This document shows positions 1,917-16,780 of a stretch of DNA of 64,000 nucleotides, piece after piece. Position numbers and translations under genes: made by a program. The DNA is from a virus. Location of the stretch: IMG/VR virus record IMGVR_UViG_3300039412_000320; one strand, 5' to 3'. The number at the start of each line of letters is the position of its first letter. Position 1 is the stretch's first letter. The notes under the pieces are model-generated. The model saw nothing but the letters and a program-made list of their open reading frames with translations, was not told where the DNA came from and searched no databases.

Positions 1917-1984
1917 GCTTTACTAAGAAGAAATATAGAATAATCCAAAATTTCAGTATTATTACTTAGCATTACTATAGCCAG

Positions 1985-2030
1985 TTATACGTGGTTACAT
2001 ATAGCTACTTATGGTTATATGTAGTTGTGA
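1985..2030. repeat. AT-rich intergenic region with two ~20-bp direct repeats (GTGGTTACATATAGCTAC / ATGGTTATATGTAGTTGT)
   Basis: Seen directly in the 200-bp untranslated gap 1917-2120; a class B -10-like 'CAGTATTATTAC' lies at 1954-1965. Confidence 0.4.
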
Positions 2031-2120
2031 CCGGTTAAGGGAGAATCATGGGTGTAAAGTTTTCGGTCCGTTTTTTGTCATATTTGAACTATCTAAAACA
2101 CTTGTAGGGAGATAGTTCAA

Positions 2121-2768
2121 ATGTTTGTGTATTTAATATTTAATCGAATAAGCCTTAAGCTATACATCGGTAAGACCACGACATCCAACCTGGGTTTGTA
2201 TCTAAAAAAGAAAATTAGAGACGCTCAAAGGGGAACTTATCCCGGTAGGTCACACCTCTTTTCTGCAATGGAAAAGTACCCATCTACAGCTTGGGGGATA
2301 ATCCCGCTTATCTCAAATCTTACCACTAACGAGGAGCTTTGTTATTGGGAAACGGTTTTAATTAAAGCATTTAATACCCGTTGCCCGGAAGTTGGATACA
2401 ATATCTGTAAAGGTGGAGAAGGATGGACAGGAAGACATTCCGAAGAATCACGAAGAAGGATTGGAGAAGCCACTAGGAATAGACCCGGTCCGTGGCATAA
2501 TAGGCCAATGTCCAAAGAACATAGAAGGAAGCTAGGAGCAACCCATAAAGGTCATCCCAGTGGGATGTTGAATAAACACCACTCCGAGGAATCCCGCAAA
2601 AAGATGAGCAATGCCAAAAAGGGTAAACCCAGCCCTTGGAGGGGGAAACACTTTTCTGCCGAATCCCGTAAAAAGTTAAGTATTTCCCTTAAGGGGAAAC
2701 CATGGACAGAAAGGCGGCGCAAGGCGCAGGAGTTGAAAAGGAGAGCAAGTGAGACCACCAAACTTTAG
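2121..2768 (+). CDS. GIY-YIG homing endonuclease-like protein with NUMOD3 repeats
   Basis: N-terminus 'VYLIFN...LYIGKT' and 'GYNICKGGEG'; C-terminal repeats 'SEESRRRIG', 'SKEHRRKLG', 'SEESRKKMS', 'SAESRKKLS' are NUMOD3-type. A class A-like upstream motif lies at 2087-2110. Confidence 0.75.
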   Translation: MFVYLIFNRISLKLYIGKTTTSNLGLYLKKKIRDAQRGTYPGRSHLFSAMEKYPSTAWGIIPLISNLTTNEELCYWETVLIKAFNTRCPEVGYNICKGGEGWTGRHSEESRRRIGEATRNRPGPWHNRPMSKEHRRKLGATHKGHPSGMLNKHHSEESRKKMSNAKKGKPSPWRGKHFSAESRKKLSISLKGKPWTERRRKAQELKRRASETTKL

Positions 2769-5700
2769 CGTTTGTTTGATTGCAAGAAACGAAGCTCCGA
2801 ACCTCTGGAGAATCCACAAATCACTCAAAGAATTTCAGAAACGTGACGGCGAGGTGGTCCTCGTGGACACTGAGTCTACTGACAACACTCCGGCTGTAGC
2901 TCGTGCTTTAGGCTTCACTGTTTTCGAGGTGGGGGAGAAGTTTATCTTCACCATCCCGGAGAACCTTGCCAAGGCCATCAACACTCAGTTTGTCGTACCG
3001 CCCGAAGCTCCCATTGTCGCCGCTGGCGATAAGCTCTTTGATTATGCCGCCGCCCGCAATTATTCCGCTACCATGGCGAGCAACGATGTGGTATCCATGC
3101 CGGACTGCGATGAGCAATATACCCATCTGGATATCGACGCCATTGAACGCACCATTGACCAAGGGTTCCAGCAGATGGAATTTCACTTCATCTTCTCCCA
3201 CTATCCCAACGGTCAACCCGCTGTTCAGTTCCGGCAATGCAAGATGTACGACCGGCGTATCATGCACTGGCAGGGCATCGTCCATGAGGTTCTGGCGGGA
3301 AACGCCAAGCGCACCTACCTACCGCCCAACGTGCTTCTCTTGGAACACTTCCAAGCCCCGCAGTCACACCGCACCCGGTATCTCGCCGGGCTGTCTCTCG
3401 ATTGCTACCTCAATCAGGACAACGACCGTAACAGCCACTACCTCGGACGAGAGCTTATCTGGAACGGTCATCCCCGGTCAGCCATCAAAGAACTCACTCG
3501 GCATGTCAACATGAACCGTTGGCAACAGGAGCGGGGGCAGTCCATGATTTTCATCGGGGACGCCCACATGCAACTGGGGGAGGATGACAAGGGCATCGAA
3601 TCTTGGCACAAAGCCATCCAAATAGATGATACCCGGCGTGAGCCGTGGCTTCGTCTGGCGGATTACTACTGGAAGAAGAACAATCCGCAGCGGGTAGCCT
3701 GCTATTGTATGGCTGCTTTGGAAATCCCACCTAACGATTGCTATTGTAACGTGGGAGCGCATTACACGTATGAGCCGCATGAAAAACTTTACTGGGCGCT
3801 CTGGTGGCTGGGCGACCGGGAGAGGTCGAAAGAACACTGGAGGAAGGCGTTCGCCTACGACCCGACTAACCCCAAGTATCTTGCCGACAAGCAGTTCTAC
3901 GAGCCGACTAAATATGATTATCAAATGCCCGGAGGAGGTCAAGCCGCAGACGGCGGGGGAATCCAAGGATGGATGACCCACGGCGAGCTTGAATGGTTGT
4001 ACCATCAGGCGCAACGGGAAGAAATCCAAACCATCCTCGAATTGGGTAGCTGGAAAGGCCGGTCCACCCATGCTTTGCTTTCCGGCTTGAACGGCAAGGG
4101 CCTGCTTACCGCCGTAGATACATGGAAAGGCTCGGTTGACCCCCGTGACCAAACCAACGCCATGGCAAAGCAGGAGGATGTCCTCGGCGAGTTCAAGAAA
4201 AACGTCGGGGAGTTCAAGAACCTCGAAATCTGTCAGATGGAGAGCGCAGCGGCAGCGGAGAAGTTCCGGGCCGAGGGACGCACGTTTGACATGGTGTTTA
4301 TCGACGCCGGTCACACTTATGAGGAAGTCAAGAGAGATATCGAACTCTGGCGTCCACTTGCCAAGGTCATTCTATCCGGGCATGATTATACTAATGTTTG
4401 GGAAACCGTTAGAAAAGCAGTCGATGAGCACTGTGGGCGGACCTACCATGCCGAGAGCATTTGGTATTTGCCCGTTGAACCATTTCCACAAATCAAAGGT
4501 ACTTATTTCAAATCCCACGCTGAGATGCAGGAGAAGATTGAGAAAGGTGAGCCATTCTCCTATGTCAAGTGGAATGACGGGGAACAGCAGTGTATCGAAG
4601 GCGTAGAGGGGGCAACGTGTGACGGGCAGGCGTATAGTTTCGAGCTTAACTTAGCACTTAGGAAAGCTTACAACTTTCTCACCACTCTCCAGAACGTATA
4701 CATTAGCAACTGGAAAGAGTGGTTAGATGATAACCTCAATGACGGCGGTATACTTCTGCATAGGGAGAAGCGAGACCTCCAGCCCCTACACGATTTCTAC
4801 AAGGCCATAAAGGAGAGCGGAGTACAGAAGTTCCTCATCGCCCCGGCGAAATTGCAGGGCGCTGCCGACATGCTCAACGCTGAACTTATTGAGGTTCCCG
4901 AGCATGATGCATGGAGCAAGTATAAGGAAATCAAGGATGCCATGCTATCCAAGGTTCATACCCATGGCATCTTTCTGTTCAGTTGCGGGCTGATAAGCAA
5001 GGTGCTCATCGCTGATGCCCTCACGGCGGAGAAGGACATTTGCTGTCTCGATACCGGCAGCAGCTTTGACCCTATTTTCCTCGGACAAACCCAGACTCTA
5101 CAGGCTCCGCAAAGAGAGCTTCTGGACCTGTATGCCGACCTGCTCCCCGAGCAAAAGCAGTATATTCCCAAGAGCATTTTCACCATCTGGTTGTCAGAGA
5201 AAGAAGGCTTGCCGCCGCTCGTGGAGAAGTGTGTCAAGAGCCAGCAGATTCCCGGCTACGAACACAAGGTCTTGGGCCTAACCGATTGCCCCAAGGGTAT
5301 CCCCTATCTGGATGCCGCACTAGCTGCCAAGAAGTGGGTCAAAGCAGCGGACTACCTGCGCATTTGGTGGTTGAAGGAGTACGGCGGCATCTATGTCGAT
5401 TCTGACATGGAAATCCTGCCGGACAGGAACTTCAACCGTTTGCTTGGCAACTCGTTTTTCGTCTGCCGGGAAGACAACGGTTTTATCGCCAATAGTCTCA
5501 TCGGGGCGAAGAGGGGTCATCCCATCCTTGCGGAACATCTCGCCGAAGTGGGGGCCAAGTTCAAGGGTGATGATGACTACATTTTCCAAGCAGCACAGGA
5601 AATCCTCACCCCGAGGATAAGCAGTGCAGCACCCTCAGACCTGACAGTCAAAACTCTTCCCGCTCATGTCTTCTGTCCCTATAACCACCAAAATGGGGAG

Positions 5701-6417
5701 ATTGATGTACGGGATGACACCGTGGCTTTCCACCACTTTGCCAAAGCGTGGATTAAGGAAGACTACACTCGGGACTTCCTTCCCCGTGTCGCCGTCCTAA
5801 TACCCTCGCTGGGACGCCCGGAGGGCCTCCAGAAGTGTTTGGAGTCCGTAGACCACCTCTACTACCCCAAGCACTTGATTAAGGCATTCGTGGACGAAGG
5901 CGAGGGCACGGTAAGCCAGAAGGTCAACCGGCTCGCCGCCGCCAACCCGGACTTTGACGCTTACGTGTATGCGGCCAATGATATGGAGTTCGACCCGTGG
6001 TGTGTGTACCGGGCAGTCAAAGAAGGTCAGGGCAACCCACCCAAGGCTCACCCCTTCGAGACCCCGCCGCATTATCCCTTCGTCAAGGGATTGGTATCCT
6101 TCAACGCCGGACCGGTGTACCCGGATGAGGGGAACATCTGCGAACATTTCCTCATCAGCCGGGACTTGTACTTGAAGCTGGGGGAAATTTTCTCCGAGAA
6201 GTTTCACCACGTTGGCGTGGATAACCTTCTGTGGGTAAAGGCCAAGAAGCTTGGTCAGGTACTTCACTCTGAAACGGCAAAGATAACCCACCACCATTTC
6301 AGCAAGACTCACGTGATGGATGCTATCTACGAGAAGGGTTGGTCACAGGTGGATTCCGACCGGGCTATCCTCGCTCAAGAACTCAAAAAATTGGAAGAAA
6401 CTCCCACTGCAACGTAA
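2749..6417 (+). CDS. 1222-aa multidomain glycosyltransferase/methyltransferase (GT2 - TPR - class I SAM MTase - GT32-like DXD - GT2)
   Basis: GTG start preceded by AAGGAGAG. Domains read in order: 'FSVCLIARNEAP...EVVLVDTESTDNT...DCDE' (GT2); TPR-like helices; 'ILELGSWKGRSTHALL...VFIDAGHTYEEV' (class I SAM MTase); 'IWLSEKEG...AADYLRIWWLKEYGGIYVDSDMEIL' (Gly_transf_sug/DXD); 'AVLIPSLGRPEGLQKCLESV...KAFVDEGEG' (second GT2). Confidence 0.75.
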   Translation: MRPPNFSVCLIARNEAPNLWRIHKSLKEFQKRDGEVVLVDTESTDNTPAVARALGFTVFEVGEKFIFTIPENLAKAINTQFVVPPEAPIVAAGDKLFDYAAARNYSATMASNDVVSMPDCDEQYTHLDIDAIERTIDQGFQQMEFHFIFSHYPNGQPAVQFRQCKMYDRRIMHWQGIVHEVLAGNAKRTYLPPNVLLLEHFQAPQSHRTRYLAGLSLDCYLNQDNDRNSHYLGRELIWNGHPRSAIKELTRHVNMNRWQQERGQSMIFIGDAHMQLGEDDKGIESWHKAIQIDDTRREPWLRLADYYWKKNNPQRVACYCMAALEIPPNDCYCNVGAHYTYEPHEKLYWALWWLGDRERSKEHWRKAFAYDPTNPKYLADKQFYEPTKYDYQMPGGGQAADGGGIQGWMTHGELEWLYHQAQREEIQTILELGSWKGRSTHALLSGLNGKGLLTAVDTWKGSVDPRDQTNAMAKQEDVLGEFKKNVGEFKNLEICQMESAAAAEKFRAEGRTFDMVFIDAGHTYEEVKRDIELWRPLAKVILSGHDYTNVWETVRKAVDEHCGRTYHAESIWYLPVEPFPQIKGTYFKSHAEMQEKIEKGEPFSYVKWNDGEQQCIEGVEGATCDGQAYSFELNLALRKAYNFLTTLQNVYISNWKEWLDDNLNDGGILLHREKRDLQPLHDFYKAIKESGVQKFLIAPAKLQGAADMLNAELIEVPEHDAWSKYKEIKDAMLSKVHTHGIFLFSCGLISKVLIADALTAEKDICCLDTGSSFDPIFLGQTQTLQAPQRELLDLYADLLPEQKQYIPKSIFTIWLSEKEGLPPLVEKCVKSQQIPGYEHKVLGLTDCPKGIPYLDAALAAKKWVKAADYLRIWWLKEYGGIYVDSDMEILPDRNFNRLLGNSFFVCREDNGFIANSLIGAKRGHPILAEHLAEVGAKFKGDDDYIFQAAQEILTPRISSAAPSDLTVKTLPAHVFCPYNHQNGEIDVRDDTVAFHHFAKAWIKEDYTRDFLPRVAVLIPSLGRPEGLQKCLESVDHLYYPKHLIKAFVDEGEGTVSQKVNRLAAANPDFDAYVYAANDMEFDPWCVYRAVKEGQGNPPKAHPFETPPHYPFVKGLVSFNAGPVYPDEGNICEHFLISRDLYLKLGEIFSEKFHHVGVDNLLWVKAKKLGQVLHSETAKITHHHFSKTHVMDAIYEKGWSQVDSDRAILAQELKKLEETPTAT

Positions 6418-6427
6418 AACCTGCCTA

Positions 6428-6449
6428 TAGCCCTCTTAATTGAGGGCTA
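6428..6449 (+). promoter_or_regulatory. Perfect 8-bp stem hairpin (TAGCCCTC-ttaatt-GAGGGCTA) whose 3' arm contains the SD (GAGGG) of the collagen-like gene
   Basis: Inverted repeat read directly; ATG of the next gene at 6454 is 7 nt after the stem; no T-run follows. Confidence 0.55.
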
Positions 6450-6453
6450 AGGC

Positions 6454-8748
6454 ATGGCACTTGTCTGTGTATTCAATCCGGTTTCCAAACTCATCGACTC
6501 TGTAGAGGGACTCGTCGTCACCTTCGTAGGGACGTGGAGTATCAATGCCGTCTATCTTGGGGGCAATGTTGCCAGTTACGGCGGCTCCCTCTGGATATCC
6601 CTCCTTGACAACAACTCAGGAAATCAGCCCGACATTTCTCCCACATGGTGGGCGCAGTATGCCTCCTCCGGTGCCACGGGACCAACAGGACCCGGAAATT
6701 TTACAGGCTATACCGGACCTACCGGACCCAGCGGATACACAGGTTATACCGGCCCCGGTAATTTCACGGGTTACTCAGGGTACACGGGACCAAGCGGTTA
6801 TACTGGACCCAGTGGATATACAGGCTACACTGGTCCCGGAAATTTTACTGGTTACTCTGGGTACACGGGATTTTCTGGTCCCACCGGTTACTCAGGATTC
6901 ACCGGGTACACCGGCCCCGGTAATTTCACGGGTTATACCGGACCCATAGGTCCCTCTGGTTACACCGGTTACTCTGGCTACACCGGCCCGACCGGGCCGG
7001 GTAATTTCACGGGTTTCTCAGGATATACAGGATACACCGGTTATACCGGAGAAGCGGGAACGGCGGCGGCTACCGGAGCTACAGGTTACAGCGGGTATTC
7101 CGGCTACACCGGCCCCACGGGGCCGACTGGACCGGGCAATTTTACCGGTTACACCGGATACACTGGACCCAGCCACACAGGCTACACTGGTTACACAGGA
7201 CCCACGGGTTCCACCGGGGCTACAGGTTACACAGGTTTTACAGGACCCGGTTCCTTTACAGGTTACACAGGTCCAACCGGCTATTTGGGCTACACTGGAC
7301 CTTCCGGTTACTCGGGTTACACGGGATATACAGGGCCAGTCGGTCCTGTTGCTTATGGTGAGATGAGCATTCAAACGAATGCCACTGCCACAACCCTCAC
7401 CACGCAAAACACTTGGTATCAAGTAGTCAACTGGACATTAGGCAGTCTTTTCCAGAACATGACGGGAAATACCTCGTCCCCCGCTACACTGACCTGCACC
7501 ACCGGTCTAGCAGCCTTAACTTGCAGGGTACATTTTACCGGCAGCGTAACCGTCTCCGCTGGTTCTCAGACTTATCAACTGTCTGTATACAAAAATGGTT
7601 CTCAGTTGGTTGACCAGACAGTTAACATTACCTCCAACGGTGGTGGTGCCCCTGCTCTGACTTACCCCGTCTCCTTGTCGGGACTCGATACTATGGCGAA
7701 CAACGATACGTTTGCTATCTTTGCTCGTTGCACCACGTCCAACGCCGTTTCTCTAACCGTCACTCAAGCCAACTTTAACATCGCTACCACTGGTATTGGA
7801 CCGAGTGGACCTACAGGCTACAGCGGTTACACCGGCTATACTGGTCCGGGTAATTTCACGGGTTATACTGGTTACACAGGTCCTAATATCACTGGTCCAA
7901 CCGGACCCACAGGCCCCGGAAATTTCACGGGTTATACCGGAGCCACGGGTTACTCAGGACCAACTGGTTACTCAGGATACACTGGACCCACGGGTTATAC
8001 CGGCTACACAGGTTACACGGGACCGCAGGGAGCTTCTGCTTATGGCGAAATGACCATCGCCAATGAGACTGTGGTTCTTACCAATCAGGGAACATGGTAT
8101 CAGCTAATCAACTGGACTACTGGACAGCTTTCCAACATGACTGGGAATACCAGCGGTACTCAAACTTTGACCTGTACCACGGGTCTGCCCGCTATCGGTT
8201 GCAATACTATCTTCACCGGCTCATTAATCATAAGTACTGCCAATCAGGCCTATCAACTGGCGGTGTTTAAGAATGGCTCTATCCTCACCGAGCACGAGAT
8301 TGATGTTCTCGAAGATAGCACCACGGAACAGGTAGCCTTTGCCATCTCCGGTATCGACAGCATGGCAGATGGAGACTACTTTGCTATCTTTGCTCGCTGT
8401 ACTACCATTGGCTCCGTTACTCTTACGATTAACCAAGGGAACTTCAACATCATCTCCATTGGACCGGGAGCTATCGGGCCTACGGGTCCAGTGGGACCTA
8501 CCGGACCAACGGGTCCCGGTAATTTTACGGGGTATACAGGCCCCCTTGGTGCGACCGGACCGGTCAGCGGCTCCCCCATTACTCCCGTGCCCTTTGCTTC
8601 CCTCGGGTCAGCGGTGGGACTGCCGGGGCGTATCGCAGCGGTCAACAACAGTGGTGTAAACACTTGGGGCGGCACTGCCAATGGCTCCGGTGGTTTCACC
8701 GTGTTGGTTTGGAGCAACGGCTCACTGTGGACCGTCATAGGTTCTTAG
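6454..8748 (+). CDS. Collagen-like repeat fibre protein with two C1q/TNF-like (BclA C-terminal-like) globular domains
   Basis: Long runs of G-Y-T/G-P-T/G-P-S triplets punctuated by a recurring 'PGNFTG'; the collagen run plus ~140-aa beta-rich head ('AYGEM(S/T)I...TWYQ(V/L)(V/I)NWT...LTCTTGL...YQL(S/A)V(Y/F)KNGS...FAIFARCTT') occurs twice; the C-terminus is Gly/Pro-rich. Confidence 0.75.
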
Positions 8749-8762
8749 TGACAGGAAAAATA

Positions 8763-8786
8763 AACTTTCTAAACCTTTTATAGGGG
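8763..8786 (+). promoter_or_regulatory. Class A upstream motif AACTTTCTAAACCTTTTATAGGGG (representative instance)
   Basis: Near-identical 22-25-mers end 8-10 nt before the ATG of many genes (see findings for the full list). Confidence 0.5.
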
Positions 8787-8793
8787 AAAGTTT

Positions 8794-9672
8794 ATGTTTA
8801 TCTATTTAATTGTCAACCGAGAGACTGGTAAATACTACATTGGTCAGCACAAGGGGAAAGACTTAAAAAAGTACTTTCAAACCAAGTTATCGGATGCTAA
8901 ACATAATCGGGGAGGAAAGTCTCACCTATATGCTTCTATGCGGAAATATCCCTTACCTTCCTCTTGGTCTATACATGCCCTCCGCTCCGATATCCAGACA
9001 AAAGAAGAGCTTGACCAAACCGAAAAAGATTTCATTAGGTTCCTGCGGTCACAGGACCCAGAATACGGTTATAACATCTGTCGTGGAGGGGAAGGACATA
9101 CCGGACCGCTTTCTCAAGAATCCGTCAAAAAAATATCGGCTTCTCTTAAAAAGTTATGGGGTGGTTCCAAGGGTAAAGAACTCCGAAGAATAAGCGGGGA
9201 AGCATCTGACAAAAGATGGGCGCAACCGGGAAAAAAGGAACGGGCATCAGAAACAATGAGGGAAATCTGGCAGCAGCTAAAACACAGAGAACATGTTTTA
9301 GGTAAACTCAGAAACTACTGGTCAGGGATATCCGATAGTAAAAAGGCTGAAATCAGCAGTAGAATTTCTGCTACCTTGATGGGTCACTTCGTATCCGAAA
9401 AATCCCGAGTTAAAATGTCTTTAGCTCTTAAGGGAAAGCCTAGTTGGAATAAAGATAAAAATTTATCTAGGGAAACAAAGAACAAAGTATCCGTCTCGAT
9501 AACCAAACTTTGGGAAGACCCGCTATATAGGGAGCACATGGTTATAGCCGCTTCTCATCCTAAGCCATATCTTAGAAAGAGATTTTGTAAACATGGACAT
9601 GATACAAATGTTTGTGGAAGATACCCTAATGGCAACTGTCGAGGCTGCCATTTGAGATTACCTCATCTTTAG
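8794..9672 (+). CDS. GIY-YIG homing endonuclease (paralog family A) with NUMOD repeats and C-terminal Cys/His cluster
   Basis: 'MFIYLIVNRETGKYYIGQHKG...YGYNICRGGEG'; C-terminus 'CKHGHDTNVCGRYPNGNCRGCH'. Confidence 0.8.
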   Translation: MFIYLIVNRETGKYYIGQHKGKDLKKYFQTKLSDAKHNRGGKSHLYASMRKYPLPSSWSIHALRSDIQTKEELDQTEKDFIRFLRSQDPEYGYNICRGGEGHTGPLSQESVKKISASLKKLWGGSKGKELRRISGEASDKRWAQPGKKERASETMREIWQQLKHREHVLGKLRNYWSGISDSKKAEISSRISATLMGHFVSEKSRVKMSLALKGKPSWNKDKNLSRETKNKVSVSITKLWEDPLYREHMVIAASHPKPYLRKRFCKHGHDTNVCGRYPNGNCRGCHLRLPHL

Positions 9673-9687
9673 AGGGTATTATATCCT

Positions 9688-10389
9688 ATGGAGTTCACTA
9701 TTTCCAGTCCGCTCAAAGTCGAAGTTGATACCGTCATCCCCTCCATGGATTTCAAGGAGGCGTTGCCGGGGCTTATCGCCTCGGGGAAGAAGTTCGACCG
9801 TCAGACTCTCCAGAAGATTCCCTACTGCCAACTCCACCTCTGCTGCATCGGTCCAGCCGGATTAGCCGCCTGCTCCCCGAGACTGGTCTTCAAGGAGAAG
9901 GAGCGCCGGTTGAGCCGGTACATCTCCTCCGCCCCGGAGGAGCTTGCCGCCAGTGAGCGCTGGATGAAGACCGAGGGCATGTACAGAGACGTAATGGCGG
10001 AGGTCGCCGCAAAGTCCGCCCCCTCGTGGGATACCCTCAAGCCCCGGCAGAAGGTCGTTGCCAAGCTATTCTGCCTCTACAACCACATAGACGACCCCGA
10101 GGAGAGGGTGGTGGAAGCCGTAGTGCTTCTCCGGGAGGCGGCGGGCAAGGGTATCGACCCCATGCTTTGCTCTGAGTGTTGCTCCCGACTGGTCAACATC
10201 ACCCGGCGTTATCTGGGCATCCAGATTGAGGAAAAGGACAAAATTGGTGCCTCGGAGTTCTGGGAGGGGATTTACCAGACCATGGAATCCGTTTTGGACG
10301 TTTTACCCAAGGAGGAACAGCTAGTTCTGGTGCGGGAAAGGATTAGGGGTTATTCATGTACTTCAGACTGCTTCCGCAGTTGTTTTTAA
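9688..10389 (+). CDS. hypothetical protein (C-terminal segment weakly sigma region-4-like)
   Basis: ORF directly preceded by 'GGTATTATATCCT' with no SD (leaderless-type arrangement); 'LPKEEQLVLVRERIRGYS' is helix-turn-helix-like. Confidence 0.45.
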   Translation: MEFTISSPLKVEVDTVIPSMDFKEALPGLIASGKKFDRQTLQKIPYCQLHLCCIGPAGLAACSPRLVFKEKERRLSRYISSAPEELAASERWMKTEGMYRDVMAEVAAKSAPSWDTLKPRQKVVAKLFCLYNHIDDPEERVVEAVVLLREAAGKGIDPMLCSECCSRLVNITRRYLGIQIEEKDKIGASEFWEGIYQTMESVLDVLPKEEQLVLVRERIRGYSCTSDCFRSCF

Positions 10390-10448
10390 GATACTATATT
10401 TCCCCACAGAAAAGAAACTTCCCATTGTATTGGTAGGGGGAAAATTAA

Positions 10449-11435
10449 ATGGGAAGTAAGGGTACTTGTGGTGTCTATGTAATATGGGTAAAGGACGATA
10501 ACGGAAATGAAAAGCCCTATATAGGCAGCAGCAAATGGATGGAACATAGAAGGAAACAACATCTTCAAGCACTAGCTGTTGGAAAGCACCGTAACTATAA
10601 ACTTCGGCGGGCGTGGCGGGAGTACGGACCGCAAGCGTTTAGGTTTGAGGTCCTGTTTCCTTGTGAAGAGAATGAGAGATTTGTCTGGGAAGAGTTGATG
10701 ATTCGCTTCCTTGATTCTTTTCACAATGGATACAATCTAACCCCCAATGTCATGGACCTGTCAGTGATTCCCCGCTGCAACAGACCCCTGTCTGACAAAA
10801 CCAAGAAAAAATTATCTGAATTGGCATATAAAAAGTATGAGGCCGCCTCGGAGCATGAAAAGACATCTAAGTCGTTAAAGGAGTTCTGGGGTAACGCAGA
10901 AAACCGAGAATGTCTGTTAGCACCGTACCGTACTCCCGAATATAGGGCCAAGTGTAGTTGTCTTACCACCTTGTCTTGGCAGGATGCGGTCATAAGGACA
11001 CGAAGAACGGACGGTCTCAAGAAAGTTATGGCTACGACAGCTTACCGCCATAATCTTTCAGCTTCCTTGACGGGAAAGAAGAAATCGGCACAACACGCCG
11101 AGAATATAGCATTGGGGGCCAAGAAAAAATATAGAAACCCTGCGGAGAGGAAAAAAACCAGCGACTCCCTCCATACTCCCGATGCGCACGCCAAGCTATC
11201 CGAGAAATCCTTTGTGGCTTGGCAAAACCCGATTTATAGAAACCACCTAAGCGAATGCCGTCGTCTCCAATGGCTTAAACCGGGCGTGCGGGAAACAATG
11301 GGGGAAAAAATAGCGGCTGGTTTGGCCAAGCCCGGAGTACTTGAAAAACGAAACCAAAAAATCAGTGAAGGATTAAAGCGGGCGTGGGCGAGAAAAAAAC
11401 TTCTAAGGGTTAAAAGTATAGAAAACTCCCCATGA
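10449..11435 (+). CDS. GIY-YIG homing endonuclease (I-TevI/Seg-like) with NUMOD repeats
   Basis: 'GVYVIWV...YIGSS...RRKQH...FEVLF...GYN'; a class A-like motif lies at 10416-10440. Confidence 0.8.
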   Translation: MGSKGTCGVYVIWVKDDNGNEKPYIGSSKWMEHRRKQHLQALAVGKHRNYKLRRAWREYGPQAFRFEVLFPCEENERFVWEELMIRFLDSFHNGYNLTPNVMDLSVIPRCNRPLSDKTKKKLSELAYKKYEAASEHEKTSKSLKEFWGNAENRECLLAPYRTPEYRAKCSCLTTLSWQDAVIRTRRTDGLKKVMATTAYRHNLSASLTGKKKSAQHAENIALGAKKKYRNPAERKKTSDSLHTPDAHAKLSEKSFVAWQNPIYRNHLSECRRLQWLKPGVRETMGEKIAAGLAKPGVLEKRNQKISEGLKRAWARKKLLRVKSIENSP

Positions 11436-11463
11436 AATCAAATTTAGGGCGTATTATACTTGT

Positions 11464-13281
11464 ATGGGCGACCCTTCTATTGTCATTGAGCAGAATAAGG
11501 AAAGAAGTCTTCCGTTCAAGGAACTCAATACAGAGGCATCCCCTCAAATCCGGGACCACTTCCCCTTTCCGACCATCCGGGCATCGCAGGAGGTAGCTCT
11601 TCAGGTGATAGAAAGGGCTATCAAGGAAGGCAAGAAATACATCATAATGGAACTCCCGTGCGGGGTCGGGAAATCCGGGATTAGTGTTGCGGCTGGCTCC
11701 CTTGCCAAGACCTTCAAAACGCCAGCAGGATACCAGCAGGGGGCATACGTGCTTTCCCCGCAAAAGGTCCTCACAGAACAGTATGTTAATGACTTCGGTG
11801 ATATGGGCCTTGTTGAGCTTAAAGGAAAGGCCAACTACACCTGCCCCGGATATACTTGGGAAGAGACGGGCGAGCTTATGAACTGCGAGGACGCCGCTTT
11901 TAACTACGAAGAGCAGCACAAGGAGGTAGGGGGATGCGGGGGATATAAGCCCGCCAAAGAGGCATTTGTCAACAGTCCACTCGGAGTCACCAACTTTGCC
12001 TATTACCTAAGCGAGACAGCCCACGCCAGTCAGCTTAAGCCCCGTACCATGTTAATTTTAGACGAAGCTCATAATACAGAACAGCACATTCTCTCCCTTG
12101 CCAGTATTGAGATAACCCGATATCGCTGTGAGGAAGCAAGTCTTGATTTTAGCTCCGTACCCTTTATCACGCCCGATGCCGTGGGCATAGGAGAAGCCCT
12201 TGACTGGCTTAACCAGACATTCCGTCCTGCCGCTACAGAAGCCATCCAAAGACTCAGCTTTAACGCCGAGGAACGCCGGGATATGGGAATGCAGAAGGAA
12301 GCTTCAAAGCTTAAGCGGCGGGCAAGCGGCATGGAGAGATTCATCGGACAGCTTGACTTGTTTCTTAAGTCGGAGAACCGCAAGGATTGGATGGTATGGT
12401 CGGAGTCGGAAATCGAGAGGTGCCCCCAGTGCTGTGTGAAGCAAAAATACTCAGGGAAGAAGGAGTGCTGGAAGTGCCACAGCAGGCTCCCCCTGACCCC
12501 GGCAAAGATGATTATCAAGCCACTGACGGCTACCTTGTTCGCCGAGCCGGCCTTGTTCAGCAAGGCGGACAAGGTTATAATGTTGTCCGCCACTATCCTT
12601 GACTTCAATACTTTTTTGCGTAACCTTGGAATCAACCGAAATGACGCTGTATGCGTGGCGGTCCCGAGTGAGTTCCCGGTATGCAACCGCCCCATTTACT
12701 ACCGCCCAGTAGGGAACATGAACTACGGAAACATTGAGGCAACTCTTCCCAAGATGGCGGAGGAAGTGGGTAGGATAATGCGGAAGTACCCCAACAACAA
12801 GGGTATCGTGCATTGCGTGAGCTTCCGAGTGACTAATTACCTTATAAAGTACTTGACAGAAGGAGGGCTTGGCGGACGCATCCTTACCCATTCGGGAGAA
12901 GATACTGGGTCAAGGGAAAGGGTGGTGGAGGAGCATATTGCTTCGTCTTCTCCCTCAGTACTCTTTAGCCCAAGTCTGTCAGAGGGGCTGGATCTCAAGG
13001 AGGACCTGTCAAGGTTCCAGGTTATAGTCAAGATTCCCTATAAGGCATTAGACGTGTATGTCAAGGCACGGATGGCGCTTGATATGGACTGGTATAACCT
13101 ACAGGCGGCAATCTCGCTTGTCCAAGCGACGGGAAGGTCGGTAAGGTCGATGACTGATAGGGCAGACACCTACATCCTTGATTCCGGGTTTGAATCATTC
13201 ATAAAGCGAGCGGGGCATATGCTGCCAGAATGGTGGGTGGAGGCAGTAAAATTTCCCGGTGAATATACGATTGATTGGTAG
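11464..13281 (+). CDS. Rad3/XPD/DinG-family DEAH-box DNA helicase
   Basis: 'RASQ', Walker A 'ELPCGVGKSG', 'LILDEAHN', CxxC...CxxC insert and motif VI 'QATGRSVRS'. Confidence 0.75.
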   Translation: MGDPSIVIEQNKERSLPFKELNTEASPQIRDHFPFPTIRASQEVALQVIERAIKEGKKYIIMELPCGVGKSGISVAAGSLAKTFKTPAGYQQGAYVLSPQKVLTEQYVNDFGDMGLVELKGKANYTCPGYTWEETGELMNCEDAAFNYEEQHKEVGGCGGYKPAKEAFVNSPLGVTNFAYYLSETAHASQLKPRTMLILDEAHNTEQHILSLASIEITRYRCEEASLDFSSVPFITPDAVGIGEALDWLNQTFRPAATEAIQRLSFNAEERRDMGMQKEASKLKRRASGMERFIGQLDLFLKSENRKDWMVWSESEIERCPQCCVKQKYSGKKECWKCHSRLPLTPAKMIIKPLTATLFAEPALFSKADKVIMLSATILDFNTFLRNLGINRNDAVCVAVPSEFPVCNRPIYYRPVGNMNYGNIEATLPKMAEEVGRIMRKYPNNKGIVHCVSFRVTNYLIKYLTEGGLGGRILTHSGEDTGSRERVVEEHIASSSPSVLFSPSLSEGLDLKEDLSRFQVIVKIPYKALDVYVKARMALDMDWYNLQAAISLVQATGRSVRSMTDRADTYILDSGFESFIKRAGHMLPEWWVEAVKFPGEYTIDW

Positions 13282-13290
13282 ATACCAATA

Positions 13291-13312
13291 AGGATATAAA
13301 TCTATCCTTGTA
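13291..13312 (+). terminator. 7-bp stem hairpin AAGGATA-taaatc-TATCCTT followed by a weak T-rich tract, then a class B-like promoter
   Basis: Read directly downstream of the helicase stop. Confidence 0.3.
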
Positions 13313-13339
13313 TTCAATTGTACTGGAGGAAGTCAAACC

Positions 13340-13798
13340 ATGAAAACCATCAAAATGACCCGCACCATCCGTAGAGAGATTAACGGGATGTTCATAACCA
13401 TAGGACCGGAGGGTCTCACCTTTCGGCAGAAGCGCCAGCCGAAAGAGGATACACTCCGTCTGACGTGGGAACAGGCACTTGCAAATGCGGTTGTCGAAGA
13501 ACAAAACAGACCTACCCCGCTTGTTGAAATCAAGCCGGTACCTGACGACCCGGCACAGGTTCCCATGTTCCCCGAGCTTTCTCAACCCCTGACGAATGCT
13601 CACTTGACAGGATTCAAGCGGCTCCTACCTGAGTACGACATCCCGGCTTGCGGCCCGGAGGTTGGGGTTCACATGACGCACTGCAACATGGGAGGGTATG
13701 TTGGGGTGTGTAAGTATGGCGAGCATGACACCTGTCCCGCTCTGGAGACCCCCAAAATCGACGTGGACGAGGTTCTCAGTACCGAAGGAGACGTATGA
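13340..13798 (+). CDS. hypothetical protein
   Basis: ORF with SD 'GGAGGAAG' upstream; its stop overlaps the next start. Confidence 0.5.
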   Translation: MKTIKMTRTIRREINGMFITIGPEGLTFRQKRQPKEDTLRLTWEQALANAVVEEQNRPTPLVEIKPVPDDPAQVPMFPELSQPLTNAHLTGFKRLLPEYDIPACGPEVGVHMTHCNMGGYVGVCKYGEHDTCPALETPKIDVDEVLSTEGDV

Positions 13799-14094
13799 AG
13801 GAAAAGACTCCACTAGAAAAAGCGCAGGAGAAGGTTGTCTATATCCATGTCGCCCTCACCCTCAACGTTGACGAGGGGTCCGAGGTCTACATGCGCCCAC
13901 ATAACCCCTTCTTCGAGTTCAGCAATGACTTCTTCAAGCGGCTCCAGAACCAAATGAAAACCCGTTTGAAGTTTGCAGAAATGGGGATAGAGGACTTCAC
14001 TGCCGTGGAGACATTCGTCATGATGGTCCTCGGAGAATCCGAAGTACGCAGTATTGGAATACCAGAGGGTAAACCATGTCCGAAGAAAAAATGA
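13795..14094 (+). CDS. hypothetical protein
   Basis: ATGA start/stop overlap with neighbours. Confidence 0.45.
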   Translation: MKEKTPLEKAQEKVVYIHVALTLNVDEGSEVYMRPHNPFFEFSNDFFKRLQNQMKTRLKFAEMGIEDFTAVETFVMMVLGESEVRSIGIPEGKPCPKKK

Positions 14095-14318
14095 CCGATT
14101 GCGTTGACATTGACCATCCCCTGCCATGGGAAACACACCCCTGCGGGTGTGTGGTGGACGGCAACTACCAGATTGTGCAGGAGTGCCCGGACCCCGGCTG
14201 CATGACGAAGGCATACCTCGTCAACGCCGGGGGTTGTCACGTGTGCGGAGCGGCGGATACACGGGCGGTACAGGCGAAGGCTCAGAGGGAGCCGGTGAAG
14301 AAAGAATACGTGAACTGA
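14076..14318 (+). CDS. hypothetical Cys-rich small protein
   Basis: 'CGCVVDGNYQIVQECPDPGC...CHVCG'. Confidence 0.45.
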   Translation: MSEEKMTDCVDIDHPLPWETHPCGCVVDGNYQIVQECPDPGCMTKAYLVNAGGCHVCGAADTRAVQAKAQREPVKKEYVN

Positions 14319-14611
14319 TGCGTAGGTCCCGCCCGAGGTATCCAAAGCCGCAGGAAGTGCTGTCCTACAAGACGGCTCTGGAGCAGACCATCCCCGTGGA
14401 TACGCCCATGGTGATGGGCTGGAGGGAAAGTGCCAAGCTTATCCCTAACTGGCGCTTTCAGGGCCTCACAGGGGGCGTAGAATGGGTTGTAGACGTATAC
14501 TGTGGAGGTTACTGCTACGTTTCCGTGGGTAGGTACAACGAACGGGTTAAGTCCATAATGGCCGCTTTGAAATTTCTGCGTGCCCACCTTGCGGCAAGGG
14601 GAGTATTGTGA
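14318..14611 (+). CDS. hypothetical protein
   Basis: ATG at 14318 overlaps the TGA of the upstream gene; the upstream part of the tracked ORF 14126-14611 overlaps another gene out of frame. Confidence 0.4.
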   Translation: MRRSRPRYPKPQEVLSYKTALEQTIPVDTPMVMGWRESAKLIPNWRFQGLTGGVEWVVDVYCGGYCYVSVGRYNERVKSIMAALKFLRAHLAARGVL

Positions 14612-14645
14612 TATCCAGTTTTGAAACTATAGCACTCTATAGTGA

Positions 14646-15215
14646 ATGGAAACAAAGGAGTGCTGTATGCGAACCTTGGCTAGTGAAAAAAAGATAATTT
14701 CTCCCGGCACAAAGATGGGAATGCTTACCGTTTTGGGCTTGGTTGAGGGGAAAACATCCTTTGGGTATAGGGTTTATCGCTGTCAATGTGATTGTGGAAA
14801 AATGGTAGAGAGGGGAAGCGGGAGGCTCCGTGATTTCCGGTGTCGTGTAAGTTGTGGAAATCACTGGCATAGACCTCTTGGTGCGGCTGCGGCTCACGTT
14901 GTTTATTTGAATTACCAAACGAATGCTAAGCGTAGGGGGCATGTATTTGAGTTATCGGAGGACGAGTTTTTAGCGGTCTGTGAGCAGGATTGTCACTATT
15001 GCGGGGCTAAACCCAAGAGCGGAAACTGGAAGCACTTTAAGCGGTGCTTCGGGGATTTTTCATATAATGGTATAGATAGGAAGGATAACTCTTTGGGGTA
15101 CATCATAGGAAATTGTCTTCCTTGCTGTGGGACGTGCAATTACTCCAAGAGGGGACTGTCTTATCAAGAATACATAAGTCAGTGTCAAAGGGTTGCAATC
15201 CTTCACCCTTGCTAG
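14646..15215 (+). CDS. HNH homing endonuclease
   Basis: 'CHYCGAKP...YNGIDRKDNSLGYIIGNCLPCCGTCNYSK'. Confidence 0.8.
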   Translation: METKECCMRTLASEKKIISPGTKMGMLTVLGLVEGKTSFGYRVYRCQCDCGKMVERGSGRLRDFRCRVSCGNHWHRPLGAAAAHVVYLNYQTNAKRRGHVFELSEDEFLAVCEQDCHYCGAKPKSGNWKHFKRCFGDFSYNGIDRKDNSLGYIIGNCLPCCGTCNYSKRGLSYQEYISQCQRVAILHPC

Positions 15216-15236
15216 TGGATTTTGGTATTATATAAT

Positions 15237-15968
15237 ATGATAAAAAGCTCAAATACAGCTAATGGCACCCCTCCAGTTTTAGTTCCTCTTTCCACGTTAG
15301 AAGACTTAAAGAGAGTACTCTTCGTGCAAAAAACTATTGCACAGGAATGTCGCCGGGAGTTGATAGCGACCGCCACGGCGAAAGAGATTGCCACGGGCGA
15401 GGTATCCGCCCCGGAGGAAATGCGCCGGATAATCAAGGCGCAGACCGCCCTGCTGGAGAAGTACGCCAAATATCCCACCCTGTCGGAGTTCATGTTCCAC
15501 CCCGACCTTGCCGGGTCCACCCGGTGGGGAGCGACCTTTGGGGTGACTATCCTCGTCCGGGCGCTCATCCTTGACCCCATCAAAGCAGCTATGCAGGCGT
15601 TTGCTCCCTTCATGCGGAGTATCTACCTTCTGCTCATTAAAGAGTTAGACAACCCTACCCACGAGTATCTTATCGAGCCATTGGAAGAGAACATCAAGTT
15701 CCGGGTAACTATGGGCGAGAACGGTGAGGAAATCACCGACGAGCGCAGCACTCTGCTCACCCGTAAGCTCCTTTACCAAGTCACGGAAAGCCTGTTGATG
15801 ATAAGTGCCCAGTACGGCATCATTGGAGCCACGCCGGGAGGGTTCCAGATAACTGATATGGGTCGCCGGGTTTTACTCCATCTTGTTGACTCTTCAGTTT
15901 TTTTAGAAGAACTTGTGGAGGCCCACAAACGTTTTCAATCTGAAAAGCCGAAACTTAATTTTATATGA
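15237..15968 (+). CDS. hypothetical protein
   Basis: ATG directly after 'GGTATTATATAAT' (class B -10-like, no SD). Confidence 0.45.
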   Translation: MIKSSNTANGTPPVLVPLSTLEDLKRVLFVQKTIAQECRRELIATATAKEIATGEVSAPEEMRRIIKAQTALLEKYAKYPTLSEFMFHPDLAGSTRWGATFGVTILVRALILDPIKAAMQAFAPFMRSIYLLLIKELDNPTHEYLIEPLEENIKFRVTMGENGEEITDERSTLLTRKLLYQVTESLLMISAQYGIIGATPGGFQITDMGRRVLLHLVDSSVFLEELVEAHKRFQSEKPKLNFI

Positions 15969-16012
15969 CGACTGGAAAAATGAACTTTCTAAATCCTTTA
16001 TAGGGATTATTC

Positions 16013-16780
16013 ATGTTTATTTATCTTATCGTCAACCATGTGACCGGCAAATACTATGTCGGTCAGCATAAGGGGAATAACCTTAAAAAGTATCTTCAAA
16101 CAAAAATGTCTTCTGCTAGGTATCGTCACAGGGGAAACTCTCATCTTTTCAATTCAATGCGTAAGTATCCTCAGTCTACTTTATGGTCCATCCATGCTCT
16201 TCGTTCCGATATACAGACTCGTGAGGAGCTTGACGAGACCGAAAAAGACTTCATCCGGTTCTTACGGTCGCAAAACCCTGAGTACGGCTACAACATATGC
16301 CGGGGAGGGGAGGGACGAACTGGACCACATTCTGAAATCTCTCGCAAGAAGACCTCTAATTCAATTAAAAAAGCATGGATGATACCAGAAATACGAGAGA
16401 GACTTATAAGTAATAGACGAGGTAAGACCCACAATCGAGGATGTCTTATTCCATATGAAGCACGGATTCGGGGTGGAAAAATTGGAGGAAGTATAAAAAG
16501 TGATGTAAAAATCCAGCATTGTAAAAATATCGCCCATTTAGGGGGGATTATTGGGGGACTTGCTACTAATGCTACCACTAATGGTCGTAAAAGTAGAGGG
16601 GGTCGTGCCAGCGTTCTTAAAATGACTACAGAAACAAGGATTCTCGCAGGTACCAATGGAGGTAAAGTGACCGCCAGTAAACCGGGATTTTTGATTGAAA
16701 TAGGACGGATTGCTCGGTGTAAACACTGGCAAATAGGCCGTGGTAAGCCGTGTATATGTGGTCATCACAACAGCCTTTAG
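16013..16780 (+). CDS. GIY-YIG homing endonuclease (paralog family A) with C-terminal C..W.I.RGKPC.CG.H module
   Basis: 'MFIYLIVNHVTGKYYVGQHKG'; 'CKHWQIGRGKPCICGHH'; class A motif at 15983-16005. Confidence 0.8.
   Translation: MFIYLIVNHVTGKYYVGQHKGNNLKKYLQTKMSSARYRHRGNSHLFNSMRKYPQSTLWSIHALRSDIQTREELDETEKDFIRFLRSQNPEYGYNICRGGEGRTGPHSEISRKKTSNSIKKAWMIPEIRERLISNRRGKTHNRGCLIPYEARIRGGKIGGSIKSDVKIQHCKNIAHLGGIIGGLATNATTNGRKSRGGRASVLKMTTETRILAGTNGGKVTASKPGFLIEIGRIARCKHWQIGRGKPCICGHHNSL

Follow-up and report, generated by a model that had tools for sequence, protein, structure and literature searches.

We examined a 64,000-nucleotide stretch of viral DNA (IMG/VR record IMGVR_UViG_3300039412_000320, here called the window) in which a sequence motif, termed class A, recurs directly upstream of genes for free-standing homing endonucleases (HEs), as at positions 8,763 to 8,786. 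The dominant feature of these sites is a hairpin over the translation start, more than a linear promoter. The AACTTTC box of the motif forms the 5' arm of this hairpin and the 3' arm holds the Shine-Dalgarno sequence (SD) and/or the AUG, an inverted repeat that was absent from the sequence-only reading in which the motif had been noticed. That earlier observation of a repeated upstream motif is partly confirmed, and the interpretation given to it is partly supported. On balance we hold it probable that the class-A motif is the 5' part of a hairpin that sequesters the ribosome binding site (RBS), that this hairpin has an embedded promoter-like element, and that it is carried by free-standing HE cassettes.

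When 12 sites of the window were folded as RNA, five of them beat all 200 of their shuffled versions (z -3.3 to -4.8), the site at 8763 gave a z of -2.43 (5/200 shuffles) and the remaining six gave z values of -0.02 to -1.9. Overall, 13 of the 17 HE genes in the window have a hairpin over the translation start, which is not the case for the genes starting at 24646 and 53582. The mean leader z in the window is -1.46 for the 17 HE genes relative to -0.09 for 53 non-HE genes (p = 1.2e-4), and the translation-initiation region is more often paired in HE leaders than in non-HE leaders (p = 0.002). Permutation of the arm partners among the window's 12 sites alone gave p = 0.0003. A search with Rfam 15, which includes HEARO and the group I introns, returned no match in the window at gathering score.

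The same arrangement is observed well beyond the window. Alignment of the window's GIY-YIG HEs led to 80 IMG/VR loci with 57 unique upstream regions, so that window and related contigs together provide about 66 unique HE upstream regions. Almost all of the 57 regions share one layout, in which a stop codon lying within a TAGTGACAGGAAA-like edge is followed by the box, the stem, the loop, the 3' arm and the ATG. The box reads (G/A)ACT(T/A)YC and lies 31-36 nt 5' of the ATG, and the 3' arm contains GGAGG or GAGAGG and is then followed by the ATG. The stems vary from locus to locus yet remain complementary (CTC/GAG, CAC/GTG, CGC/GCG, GGCTCCC/GGGAGCC, GGACTCC/GGAGTCC and AACCCCTTA/TAAGGGGTT). These 57 regions have a mean z of -2.93 and a mean SD pairing probability of 0.77, which differs from non-HE leaders with p = 5e-14. 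HNH HEs of other jumbo-phage contigs have the same architecture upstream, and endonuclease-VII-type HNH genes elsewhere have class-A-like fronts, for example GAAAAAcctGACTTTC-N9-TTAGGGG in contig L113. A single-protein search for relatives of the HNH gene at 24646 returned one locus only.

Covariation of the two arms is seen in several ways. Within the window the arms AACTATC/GATAGTT at 2087 are a compensatory variant of the consensus AACTTTC/GAAAGTT, and further complementary pairs are found at 10416 (ACTTCCCAT/ATGGGAAGT), at 21014 (AACAACTT/AAGTTGTT, where the upstream stop TGA at 21005-21007 abuts the arm) and at 63838 (CCCATC/GATGGG, where the upstream gene's stop TAA at 63837-63839 lies within the box). 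An alignment-free arm swap over the roughly 66 loci gave -15.5 kcal/mol for 5' halves paired with their own 3' half versus -9.4 kcal/mol for swapped ones, with a permutation z of -17.8 that none of 10,000 permutations reached; the control genes gave a z of -1.6. In an 18-sequence MAFFT alignment with a specified structure, 79% of the cells pair, 14 cells show double changes and covariation is 0.264 relative to 0.174 when shuffled. Each of these three measures was reached by 0/500 shuffles, although sliding the structure by -1 is nearly as good, so that the register is imperfect. MAFFT followed by RNAalifold on 32 leaders gave no consensus structure because a sequence alignment leaves the variable 3' arms out of register. 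Finally, the minimum free energy (MFE) structures contain 123 G-U pairs, and in 59/70 regions the sense strand folds more stably than the antisense one, by about 3 kcal/mol (p = 3e-8), with a value of -1.05 for controls. The strand bias and the G-U pairs favour a structure at the RNA level, on the mRNA strand.

Motif statistics and the sites in the window

The class-A motif is a degenerate signal of about 32 nt that keeps the ungapped register GAAAAA-nn-AACTTTC-N9-TATAGG-GG at all good sites. The consensus first written for it, AACTTTCTAAAYCTTTATAGGG, has 0 matches at three or fewer mismatches because one base is missing from it. The corrected 23-mer AACTTTCTAAAYCCTTTATAGGG finds two sites (8763 and 15983) at no more than one mismatch versus 0.00 expected, and these two are the only copies for which the description "near-identical" holds, the remaining ones being degenerate. 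We used a 32-nt weight matrix and a null of 30 random sequences with the same dinucleotide make-up. Nine sites have leave-one-out scores of 11.8-37 bits, where the random maximum averaged 12.7 bits and was at largest 20.1 bits. With a threshold of 15 bits the + strand has 12 matches and the - strand none, versus 0.23 expected, which is well above chance. A looser search (AACTTYC N12 AGG, one mismatch) gave 22 matches versus 10.6 expected, a number reached by 0/100 shuffles.

From the 13 sites that had been listed, ten are strong (2087, 8763, 10416, 15983, 21014, 24623, 34667, 42126, 53563 and 63838), the one at 34667 becoming so after extension to 34661 (18.6 bits). The other three are weak or out of register: 35766 scores 8.3 bits, 38338 has no matrix match and 59631 has a spacing that is off by 1 nt. 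The statement that the motif ends 7-10 nt before the start codon is true of most sites and fails at 24623, where the ATG abuts TAGGG, and at 53563, where the ATG overlaps TATATG. Sites beyond the earlier list were found at 50832 (19.6 bits), at 60522 (14-16 bits) and, before HEs, at 49554 and 52151 (about 10 bits each), and an extra copy of 31.5 bits lies before a GIY-YIG HE 3.7 kb past the window's end (L097:17570). Every strong site except 50832 has an HE gene downstream, and of the 11 sites that reach 18 bits, 10 lie before GIY-YIG or HNH open reading frames (ORFs). The strong sites front at least three HE families, namely GIY-YIG/NUMOD3, endonuclease-VII-type HNH and other HNH. The proposal of an unannotated, non-random regulatory element common to HE genes is supported. 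The proposal that it serves many HE and some core genes stands for the HE genes; the core genes reduce to a half-site at the portal gene and possibly the gene at 60582. A strict form of the pattern matched only one unrelated sequence in IMG/VR (5 contigs, about 37% G+C) with no downstream ORF, and this match was treated as chance and not as a copy of the motif.

The sites, all on the + strand, are as follows. Energies are MFE values, and fractions of 200 refer to shuffles.

2079-2124, + strand: class-A motif (box AACTATC at 2087; 28 bits, leave-one-out 11.8) with a 15-bp hairpin (2080-2124; -16.8 kcal/mol, z -3.99, 0/200) that covers SD and AUG of the GIY-YIG/NUMOD3 HE 2121-2768 (Pfam NUMOD3 9e-18).
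8755-8795, + strand: the focal site, motif 8755-8786 (42 bits, leave-one-out 36.5) and hairpin 8760-8795 (AAACTTTC/GAAAGTTT plus an inner CCU/AGG helix; -12.9 kcal/mol, z -2.43, 5/200) over the SD GGGG and the AUG of the GIY-YIG-type HE 8794-9672 (NUMOD3).
10408-10457, + strand: motif 10408-10439 (28.7 bits) and hairpin 10417-10457 (arms ACUUCCCAUU/AAAUGGGAAGU; -14.8 kcal/mol, z -3.28, 0/200), in which the pairing partner of the box is formed by the AUG and opening codons of the divergent GIY-YIG HE 10449-11435 (GIY-YIG 2.7e-4).
14626-14643, + strand: AACTAT box in a 7-bp hairpin (ACTATAG/CTATAGT), out of matrix register, 2 nt 5' of the ATG of the HNH HE 14646-15215 (phrog_1035, 1e-14).
15975-16022, + strand: motif 15975-16006 (41.7 bits) and hairpin 15978-16022 (outer AAAAUGAA/UUCAUGUUU, inner UCCUUUA/UAGGGAU; -10.5 kcal/mol, z -1.89) over SD and AUG of the GIY-YIG-type HE 16013-16780 (phrog_314 homing endonuclease, 6e-16).
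21006-21054, + strand: motif 21006-21037 (37.6 bits) and hairpin 21011-21046 (AACAACUUUCU/AGGAAGUUGUU; -14.7 kcal/mol, z -3.48, 0/200) that sequesters the SD AGGAGG of the GIY-YIG-type HE 21047-21742.
24615-24646, + strand: class-A motif (37.3 bits) with no significant hairpin (z -0.50); the ATG of the HNH HE 24646-25410 (phrog_374 HNH endonuclease, 8.5e-24) comes immediately after TAGGG.
34653-34696, + strand: motif 34653-34684 (box ACCTATC; 18.6 bits) and hairpin 34661-34696 (ACCUAU/AUGGGU plus CUCUUCU/GGGGGAG; -14.4 kcal/mol, z -1.33) over SD and AUG of the endonuclease-VII-type HNH HE 34691-35119 (Endonuclease_7, 1e-20).
35766-35787, + strand: portal half-site with the 3' half CCCCTTTATTGAGG only (8.3 bits) and no significant hairpin (z -1.27).
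38333-38369, + strand: ACTATC box without a matrix match and 10-bp hairpin 38336-38369 (AUCAGCCCCU/AGGGGGUUGAU; -16.1 kcal/mol, z -1.73), whose own 3' half is its best pairing partner, sequestering the SD of an endonuclease-VII-type HNH HE (ATG 38371-38955).
42118-42155, + strand: motif 42118-42149 (34.3 bits) and weak hairpin 42126-42155 (AACUUC/GAAGUU; -7.2 kcal/mol, z -1.03) just 5' of the AUG of the GIY-YIG/NUMOD3 HE 42156-42905.
49546-49593, + strand: weak class-A-like motif GATTATC N9 TTTGGG (about 10 bits) and hairpin 49556-49593 (AUCAUUUG/CAAAUGAU) over the AUG of the HNH HE 49588-50175.
50824-50876, + strand: class-A site on its own (19.6 bits), then a 4-codon ORF (ATGCCCCTAGTGTAG).
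52143-52180, + strand: weak class-A-like motif (about 10 bits) and 11-bp hairpin 52154-52180 (z -2.5) that sequesters the SD GGGGAG of the HE 52182-52913 (phrog_314, 8e-14).
53555-53586, + strand: class-A motif (32.3 bits) with no hairpin (z -0.02); the ATG of the HNH HE 53582-54235 (HNH PHROGs) overlaps the TATAGG position (TATATGG).
59620-59658, + strand: AACTATG box and CCTTTATAGGGGG with a spacing 1 nt under consensus, and a hairpin (-14.2 kcal/mol, z -3.54, 0/200) over SD and AUG of the GIY-YIG-type HE 59652-60503 (phrog_314, 4.7e-21).
60514-60545, + strand: class-A-like site (14-16 bits) right after the HE 59652-60503.
63830-63880, + strand: motif 63830-63861 (32.7 bits) and hairpin 63841-63880 (CCCAUCUAUA/UAUGGAUGGG; -17.8 kcal/mol, z -4.83, 0/200) over the AUG of an HNH/NUMOD-like HE that begins at 63870 (204 aa, complete in L097).

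The solo site at 50824-50876 may be a relic, the front part left behind by an HE cassette after loss of its ORF. The class-A 3' half precedes two core genes, the portal gene and the gp6-like gene of the related contig L003, and the portal half-site (gene 35792-37945) is conserved before the portal genes of contigs L002, L003 and L006. The site at 60514-60545 lies 36 nt 5' of a 1085-aa GNAT/SprT-like gene (60582-63839), the only candidate for a large non-HE user of the motif. Two further matches were recorded. One, of 15.3 bits, lies at 8872-8896 within the coding region of the HE 8794-9672. The other is a weak class-A-like site (19381-19409; 9-11 bits) in which TATATG contains the ATG, just as at 53563, and it precedes an unannotated 270-aa ORF (19407-20219) between an HNH HE and a GTATTAT element. 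Four of the window's 17 HEs (14646, 49588, 52182 and 54601) do not stand out at first sight.

The loop element and the proposed mechanism

The class-A loops of the window read T(T/A)TATAGG and have the loop element TTTATAGG. A different element, GTATTA, is the most enriched hexamer before the window's non-HE genes (8/57 versus 0.37 expected, p = 4e-9), and GTATTAT occurs in 18 copies versus 4.4 expected (0/100 shuffles). The idea that class A is a promoter class of core genes was thus not borne out, as non-HE genes of the window use GTATTA(T) instead. This class-B element, nGTATTA(T/G), stands at two distances from the start codon, with its G either at -20 to -23 and then followed by GGAGG or at -12/-13 without an SD. 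The same two spacings recur in relatives, among them the cultured Tunturiibacter phage Tunturi_5, where one 50-kb stretch has the element before 10 of 75 annotated starts. The copies of the element are as follows.

9676, 11451, 20219, 29943, 30945 (GTACTAT), 40496 and 42913, + strand: class-B copies.
42913-42919, + strand: class-B example GTATTAT that follows an HE stop and precedes the next gene.
46006, 56929 and 58110, - strand: class-B copies.
L001:4242 and L117, the Tunturi_5 sequence (10/75 starts): class-B copies in relatives.

The placement of GTATTA at -12 from ATGs that lack an SD suggests a -10 position of the kind expected for leaderless mRNAs. Among the 66 HE leaders, 32 place GTATT at -20 to -26 (mode -22) within the loop of the hairpin, as in the core genes with an SD, and relatives also contain intermediate loop forms such as AGTATTTATAG. 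To judge from these sequences, the loop in most relatives looks like a holder of the lineage's general -10-like gene-start element, and it is plausible that the loop element acts as a promoter.

From 5' to 3', the module consists of an A-rich tract that often touches the upstream stop, the pyrimidine-rich box (G/A)ACT(T/A)YC, a loop of 10-17 nt with a -10-like element (T(T/A)TATAGG here and GTATTA(T/G) in most relatives), and a purine-rich 3' arm with the SD and often also the AUG. When the gene upstream, which is co-oriented, is the source of a read-through RNA, the box would pair with the SD/AUG and leave the endonuclease untranslated. A transcript that starts 6-8 nt past the loop element would begin in the 3' arm, lack the 5' arm and be translatable, such that the nuclease would be made only upon firing of the loop promoter. 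Promoter activity, the transcription start and translational repression are all predictions of this scheme. Circumstantial evidence for such read-through comes from the co-orientation of nearly all genes, gaps of 30-60 nt and a NusG-like gene.

Several observations weigh against this scheme. The strong sites 24623 and 53563 have no hairpin and four others have a weak one (z above -2). At some loci the box is conserved although it is not fully paired, and it also stands before HNH genes where TAGGGG precedes a second SD (L112 and L113). A box that is kept where it is unpaired indicates that pairing is not the full explanation of its conservation. Furthermore, TTTATAGG differs from the class-B consensus and resembles TATAAT poorly, and a sigma-70 scan of positions 1-20000 gave 20 sites versus 18.8 expected, which is chance level, with none at class-A sites. 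In Tunturi_5 a hairpin and loop module with GTATTAG stands before genes that are not HEs, so the module is not HE-specific across the lineage, and it may act partly as a terminator. Lastly, a median of 9 nt separates the upstream stop and the 5' arm, and terminating ribosomes might open the hairpin.

The sites without a hairpin, the unpaired boxes and the motif copies with a separate SD in L112 and L113 would all be accommodated if the motif were a linear promoter or operator with incidental complementarity, be it a promoter of a phage sigma factor or T7-type polymerase or an operator for endonuclease autorepression. This reading, which we consider quite improbable, also draws on the conserved ungapped 32-nt register that runs through to TATAGGGG, on T7-like ends (...CACTTATA, then GGGAGA), on the annotation of Tunturi_5 gp3 as a sigma factor and on the precedent of I-TevI autorepression. 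The resemblance to the T7-type block of about 23 bp (TATA and then a +1 GGG), as in CACTTGTAGGGAGA at 2087, needs a 1-nt gap and degenerate positions, and covariation of the arms and a sense-strand G-U bias are not expected of a signal that acts in DNA only. A specific operator is also at odds with a motif common to HEs with unrelated DNA-binding domains. Spacing models for ECF-sigma and sigma-70 recognition of the box plus loop were rejected by inspection since the spacings misfit. The window, its 20-kb extensions and 82 kb of Tunturi_5 yielded no gene for a sigma factor or an RNA polymerase. The larger ORFs of the window and the extensions contain no polymerase domain, no polymerase is annotated in those 82 kb, tblastn with gp3 gave no match, and gp3 has no Pfam domain behind its annotation. 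The gene at 9688-10389, which the sequence-only reading had offered as a candidate sigma factor or activator, has no match in Pfam, PHROG, NCBIfam or PDB sequences, and a confident AlphaFold model of its product (pLDDT 86) matched no PDB fold significantly (best E 0.7). The product is a conserved Cys/His-rich all-alpha protein that is not sigma-like, with 34 metagenome homologues and the invariant residues C52, C53, C62, C129, H133, C224 and C228.

The Tunturi_5 hairpins bear on a second alternative. They are G+C-rich (down to -36 kcal/mol), are often followed by a T-run, enclose GGGTATTAGCCC before non-HE genes and have the SD or start codon in the 3' arm.

L117 13517-13575 and 14553-14611, and L117 34041-34099 and 42380-42438 on the - strand: Tunturi_5 hairpins at gp49, gp50, gp82 and gp94.

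They suggest a lineage-wide composite of terminator, promoter and RBS that was the source of the HE version. Taken further, the module would be an insulator in which the stem stops upstream transcription, the loop restarts it and the repeats serve shuffling by recombination, in the manner of the PeSLs of T4-like phages (PMC4122927, PMC2839356). The G+C-rich stems with GGGTATTAGCCC and T-runs before non-HE genes (gp49 with -36 kcal/mol, gp50 and gp82) speak for this, as do the T-runs after about 10 of the 57 related HE hairpins (among them L030, L051, L087, L089, L063 and L091), the presence of one module before unrelated HE families and the coincidence of indel boundaries with it. A terminator appearance, meaning a G+C-rich stem plus a U-tract, is seen at Tunturi_5 gp49 and gp50 and at those roughly 10 related HE loci and is not shared by the window's stems. 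The class-A stems of the window are rich in A/U, no U-tract follows them directly, and none was picked up by an intrinsic terminator scan, whose output was at chance level. Most related stems are moreover followed by A-rich sequence (GGTCGAAATG), and the SD/AUG is invariably overlapped by the 3' arm, an arrangement for which a pure terminator has no need. We judge an insulator of this type to be unlikely.

The position of the upstream stop raises a third alternative, that of translational coupling, in which the ribosome finishing the upstream gene melts the stem and the HE is made as a small fixed fraction with no need of an internal promoter. In a set of 64 loci the median gap between the upstream stop and the first paired base is 9 nt; the gap is 0-12 nt in 59% of them, and the stop lies inside or beyond the 5' arm in 6%. 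In the window the stop abuts or overlaps the arm at 21014, 42126, 34661 and 63838, and the conserved edge TAGTGACAGGAAA includes the upstream stop. The modal spacing of 8-9 nt, however, places the stem just beyond the reach of a terminating ribosome so that melting would be partial at best, and the sites 2087 and 10416 sit 33 to >150 nt from the upstream stop. Coupling also leaves unexplained the conservation of the loop and its match to the core gene-start element, and we give it a low probability. A hairpin lock that is bypassed by a loop promoter is the reading we continue to prefer.

Mobility and edges of the cassettes

The sequence-only reading had suggested that HE cassettes spread together with their own expression signal, and a comparison with the related contig L003 lends this direct support. 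Segment 34654-35116, which comprises the motif and the HNH gene, is absent from L003, which is 93-97% identical to the window on both sides of it and has at this locus a 23-nt native spacer, itself a small hairpin with TTATAGAGG. The absence of the segment from L003 indicates that the motif belongs to the mobile cassette. In this one clean case the indel boundary coincides with the motif.

The 5' edge of GIY-YIG cassettes is also conserved. In TAGTGACAGGAAA the TAG/TGA is the stop of the upstream gene (8746-8762 in the window; L022, L025, L050, L074, L084, L087 and others), and at the focal site the stop TAG (8746-8748) of the upstream tail-fibre gene lies inside this edge. Thus the cassette seems to bring its own stop for the upstream gene. 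At the other end, GTATTAT stands 0-19 nt after the stop of 7 of the 16 complete HE ORFs of the window versus about 0.07 expected.

9676, 11451, 15225, 19321, 21761, 42913 and 55442: GTATTAT after HE stops.

These copies are either a cassette signal that restarts the next gene or a result of HEs landing just upstream of promoters. The HE 42156-42905 lies between clamp-loader and NusG-like genes that directly overlap in Tunturi_5, and this Tunturi_5 junction has no GTATTAT element. GTATTA as a feature of the 3' end of every HE cassette was rejected, since related GIY-YIG loci have it in only 4/53 cases versus about 2.4 expected.

A mobile segment that contains the motif, together with five close GIY-YIG paralogues in the window that all start with MFIYLI, would also fit an absence of function, in which the similarity of the sites merely reflects the shared ancestry of recently duplicated cassettes. 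The paralogues are only 44-46% identical in protein, at which distance neutral flanks should be randomised, the motif also precedes non-homologous HNH genes, and the stems covary over about 66 loci. This explanation is therefore very improbable.

A bolder form of the hairpin model, which we put forward tentatively and regard as rather unlikely, is that of a portable plug-in expression cassette common to unrelated HE families in Acidobacteria-type jumbo phages. Here the 5' edge (TAGTGAC...) would supply the stop, and the loop of the RBS lock would be a minimal, -10-only promoter yielding leaderless mRNAs or mRNAs that begin almost at the SD. A GTATTAT copy directly after the HE would, in this phage, restart the downstream gene. 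Beyond pairing, the pyrimidine box might be recognised by a phage factor or act as a recombination handle through which nuclease ORFs are exchanged behind one common front. If true, such a cassette would explain the tolerance of 17 HEs that take up 19% of the window.

The phage and comparable systems

Megablast of the 64-kb window found no close match among GenBank phages. The portal protein has 59% identity over about half its length to that of Tunturi_5, a 309-kb jumbo myovirus of an Acidobacteriota host (PMC11924767) that is the closest, though distantly related, cultured relative. Synteny with Tunturi_5 extends over the primase, DNA polymerase, portal, exonuclease, clamp-loader and NusG-like genes. 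Tunturi_5 grows on Tunturiibacter psychrotolerans, and no HE gene is annotated in its first 82 kb. Soil and peat metagenome contigs encode proteins identical to those of the window, and IMG/VR relatives with a 95% identical portal reside on contigs of 237 kb (IMGVR_UViG_3300014160_000001) and 317 kb (IMGVR_UViG_3300041809_000571). The window's genes are nearly all on the + strand and densely packed, with intergenic gaps of 30-60 nt. The 17 free-standing HE ORFs, from the GIY-YIG/NUMOD3, endonuclease-VII-type HNH and other HNH families, amount to 12.0 kb or 18.8% of the 64 kb, to which one intein is added.

That intein, of the Hint/LAGLIDADG type (about 27152-28186), splits the P-loop of a Rad50/SbcC-like ATPase (27056-29326; Walker A GPSNKGK, coiled coil and CxxC zinc hook) and is absent from the 97%-identical relative L003. 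A terminase or a sigma factor was ruled out as the product of this ORF by its assignment as the intein-containing ATPase. Other relatives have in-frame inteins in the DNA polymerase gene (L007, about 6288-7048; L009, about 6115-6872) and L003 has a 590-nt in-frame insertion in that gene (6791-7382), none of which is present in the window. The gene 42933-44117 is an antiterminator homologue of the NusG/UpxY type with weak scores (NCBIfam 3.8e-5, PHROG 9e-5) that is kept in Tunturi_5 as gp25 and is compatible with long read-through transcription. Upstream of the focal site lies a collagen-repeat tail-fibre-like gene (6454-8748; Pfam Collagen, 5.6e-27), for which the metagenome variant L102 has a different gene call (461 aa) that suggests variation in repeat length.

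The module appears, from its sequence, to be an already known design of the T4 type in a phage lineage that is new for it. The genes for T4 I-TevI, I-TevII, I-TevIII and segB and Aeh1 mobE have RBS-sequestering hairpins with embedded late or middle promoters (Gott et al. 1988; Gibb & Edgell 2007, 2009; reviewed in PMC2988022). As in those systems, the hairpin stands directly 5' of a phage HE in a co-oriented array, the SD sits in the 3' arm some 8 nt ahead of the AUG and the stem is maintained by compensatory change; the hairpin also encloses a putative promoter element of the -10 type. There are also several differences. The phages are unrelated jumbo phages of soil and peat metagenomes, the loop has TTTATAGG or GTATTA and not TATAAATA, the window's pyrimidine box is common to at least three HE families, and 13 of 17 HEs in 64 kb are hairpinned versus a handful in T4, with the transcription start and repression being inferred here. 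The T4 late genes e, soc and 49 are likewise translationally repressed by RBS-sequestering hairpins (PMC2988022). The silence of read-through early RNA and the activity of RNA from an internal promoter would be the same in the scheme proposed here; those are single phage genes, in contrast to the repeated mobile module of the window.

Marine metagenomic loci with fractured genes provide a second comparison, as 15 of 16 free-standing HE 5' untranslated regions had hairpins there, ten of which held a phage late-promoter element, and one locus kept its hairpin after HE loss (Dassa et al. 2009, PMC2677866). The mode of regulation proposed here had already been inferred for those loci. The locus without its HE resembles the solo site at 50832, and the evidence is bioinformatic in both cases. 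The marine loci are T4-like fragments with TATAAATA in which HEs split host genes between split inteins, whereas the window's HEs lie between intact genes and have another promoter-like element.

PeSLs, which are composite promoter/terminator stem-loops subject to modular shuffling in T4-like phages (PMC2839356, PMC4122927), resemble the window's module in that short, repeated intergenic modules of a stem-loop and a promoter, here a putative one, flank variable genes and coincide, here in one clean case, with indel boundaries of close relatives. In PeSLs an early promoter of the sigma-70 type stands beside a terminator stem-loop with no tie to RBS sequestration or HEs, whereas in the window the promoter-like element is inside the loop, the 3' arm is the RBS and there is no sigma-70 consensus. 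A repeated conserved motif that stands directly before many start codons and includes the RBS is also a feature of cluster K mycobacteriophages (SAS/ESAS), the SAS being a 13-bp motif at non-HE genes. We know of no demonstrated RBS-sequestering hairpin for SAS and of no sequence similarity between it and the window motif.

The GTATTA element is a candidate for a minimal promoter element, with probable leaderless genes, in Acidobacteriota phages, and to our knowledge the transcription signals of such phages have not been described. HEs are selfish nucleases that must not disturb neighbouring genes, a demand that T4-like phages answer by hiding the RBS in a hairpin and adding a late promoter. 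That this solution seems to recur in an unrelated, uncultured jumbo lineage, at 13 of the 17 HEs of the window and in dozens of related contigs, suggests that a "translation lock" is a general need for HE persistence and not a peculiarity of T4, an idea for which the roughly 66 naturally varying stems constitute a large comparative data set.

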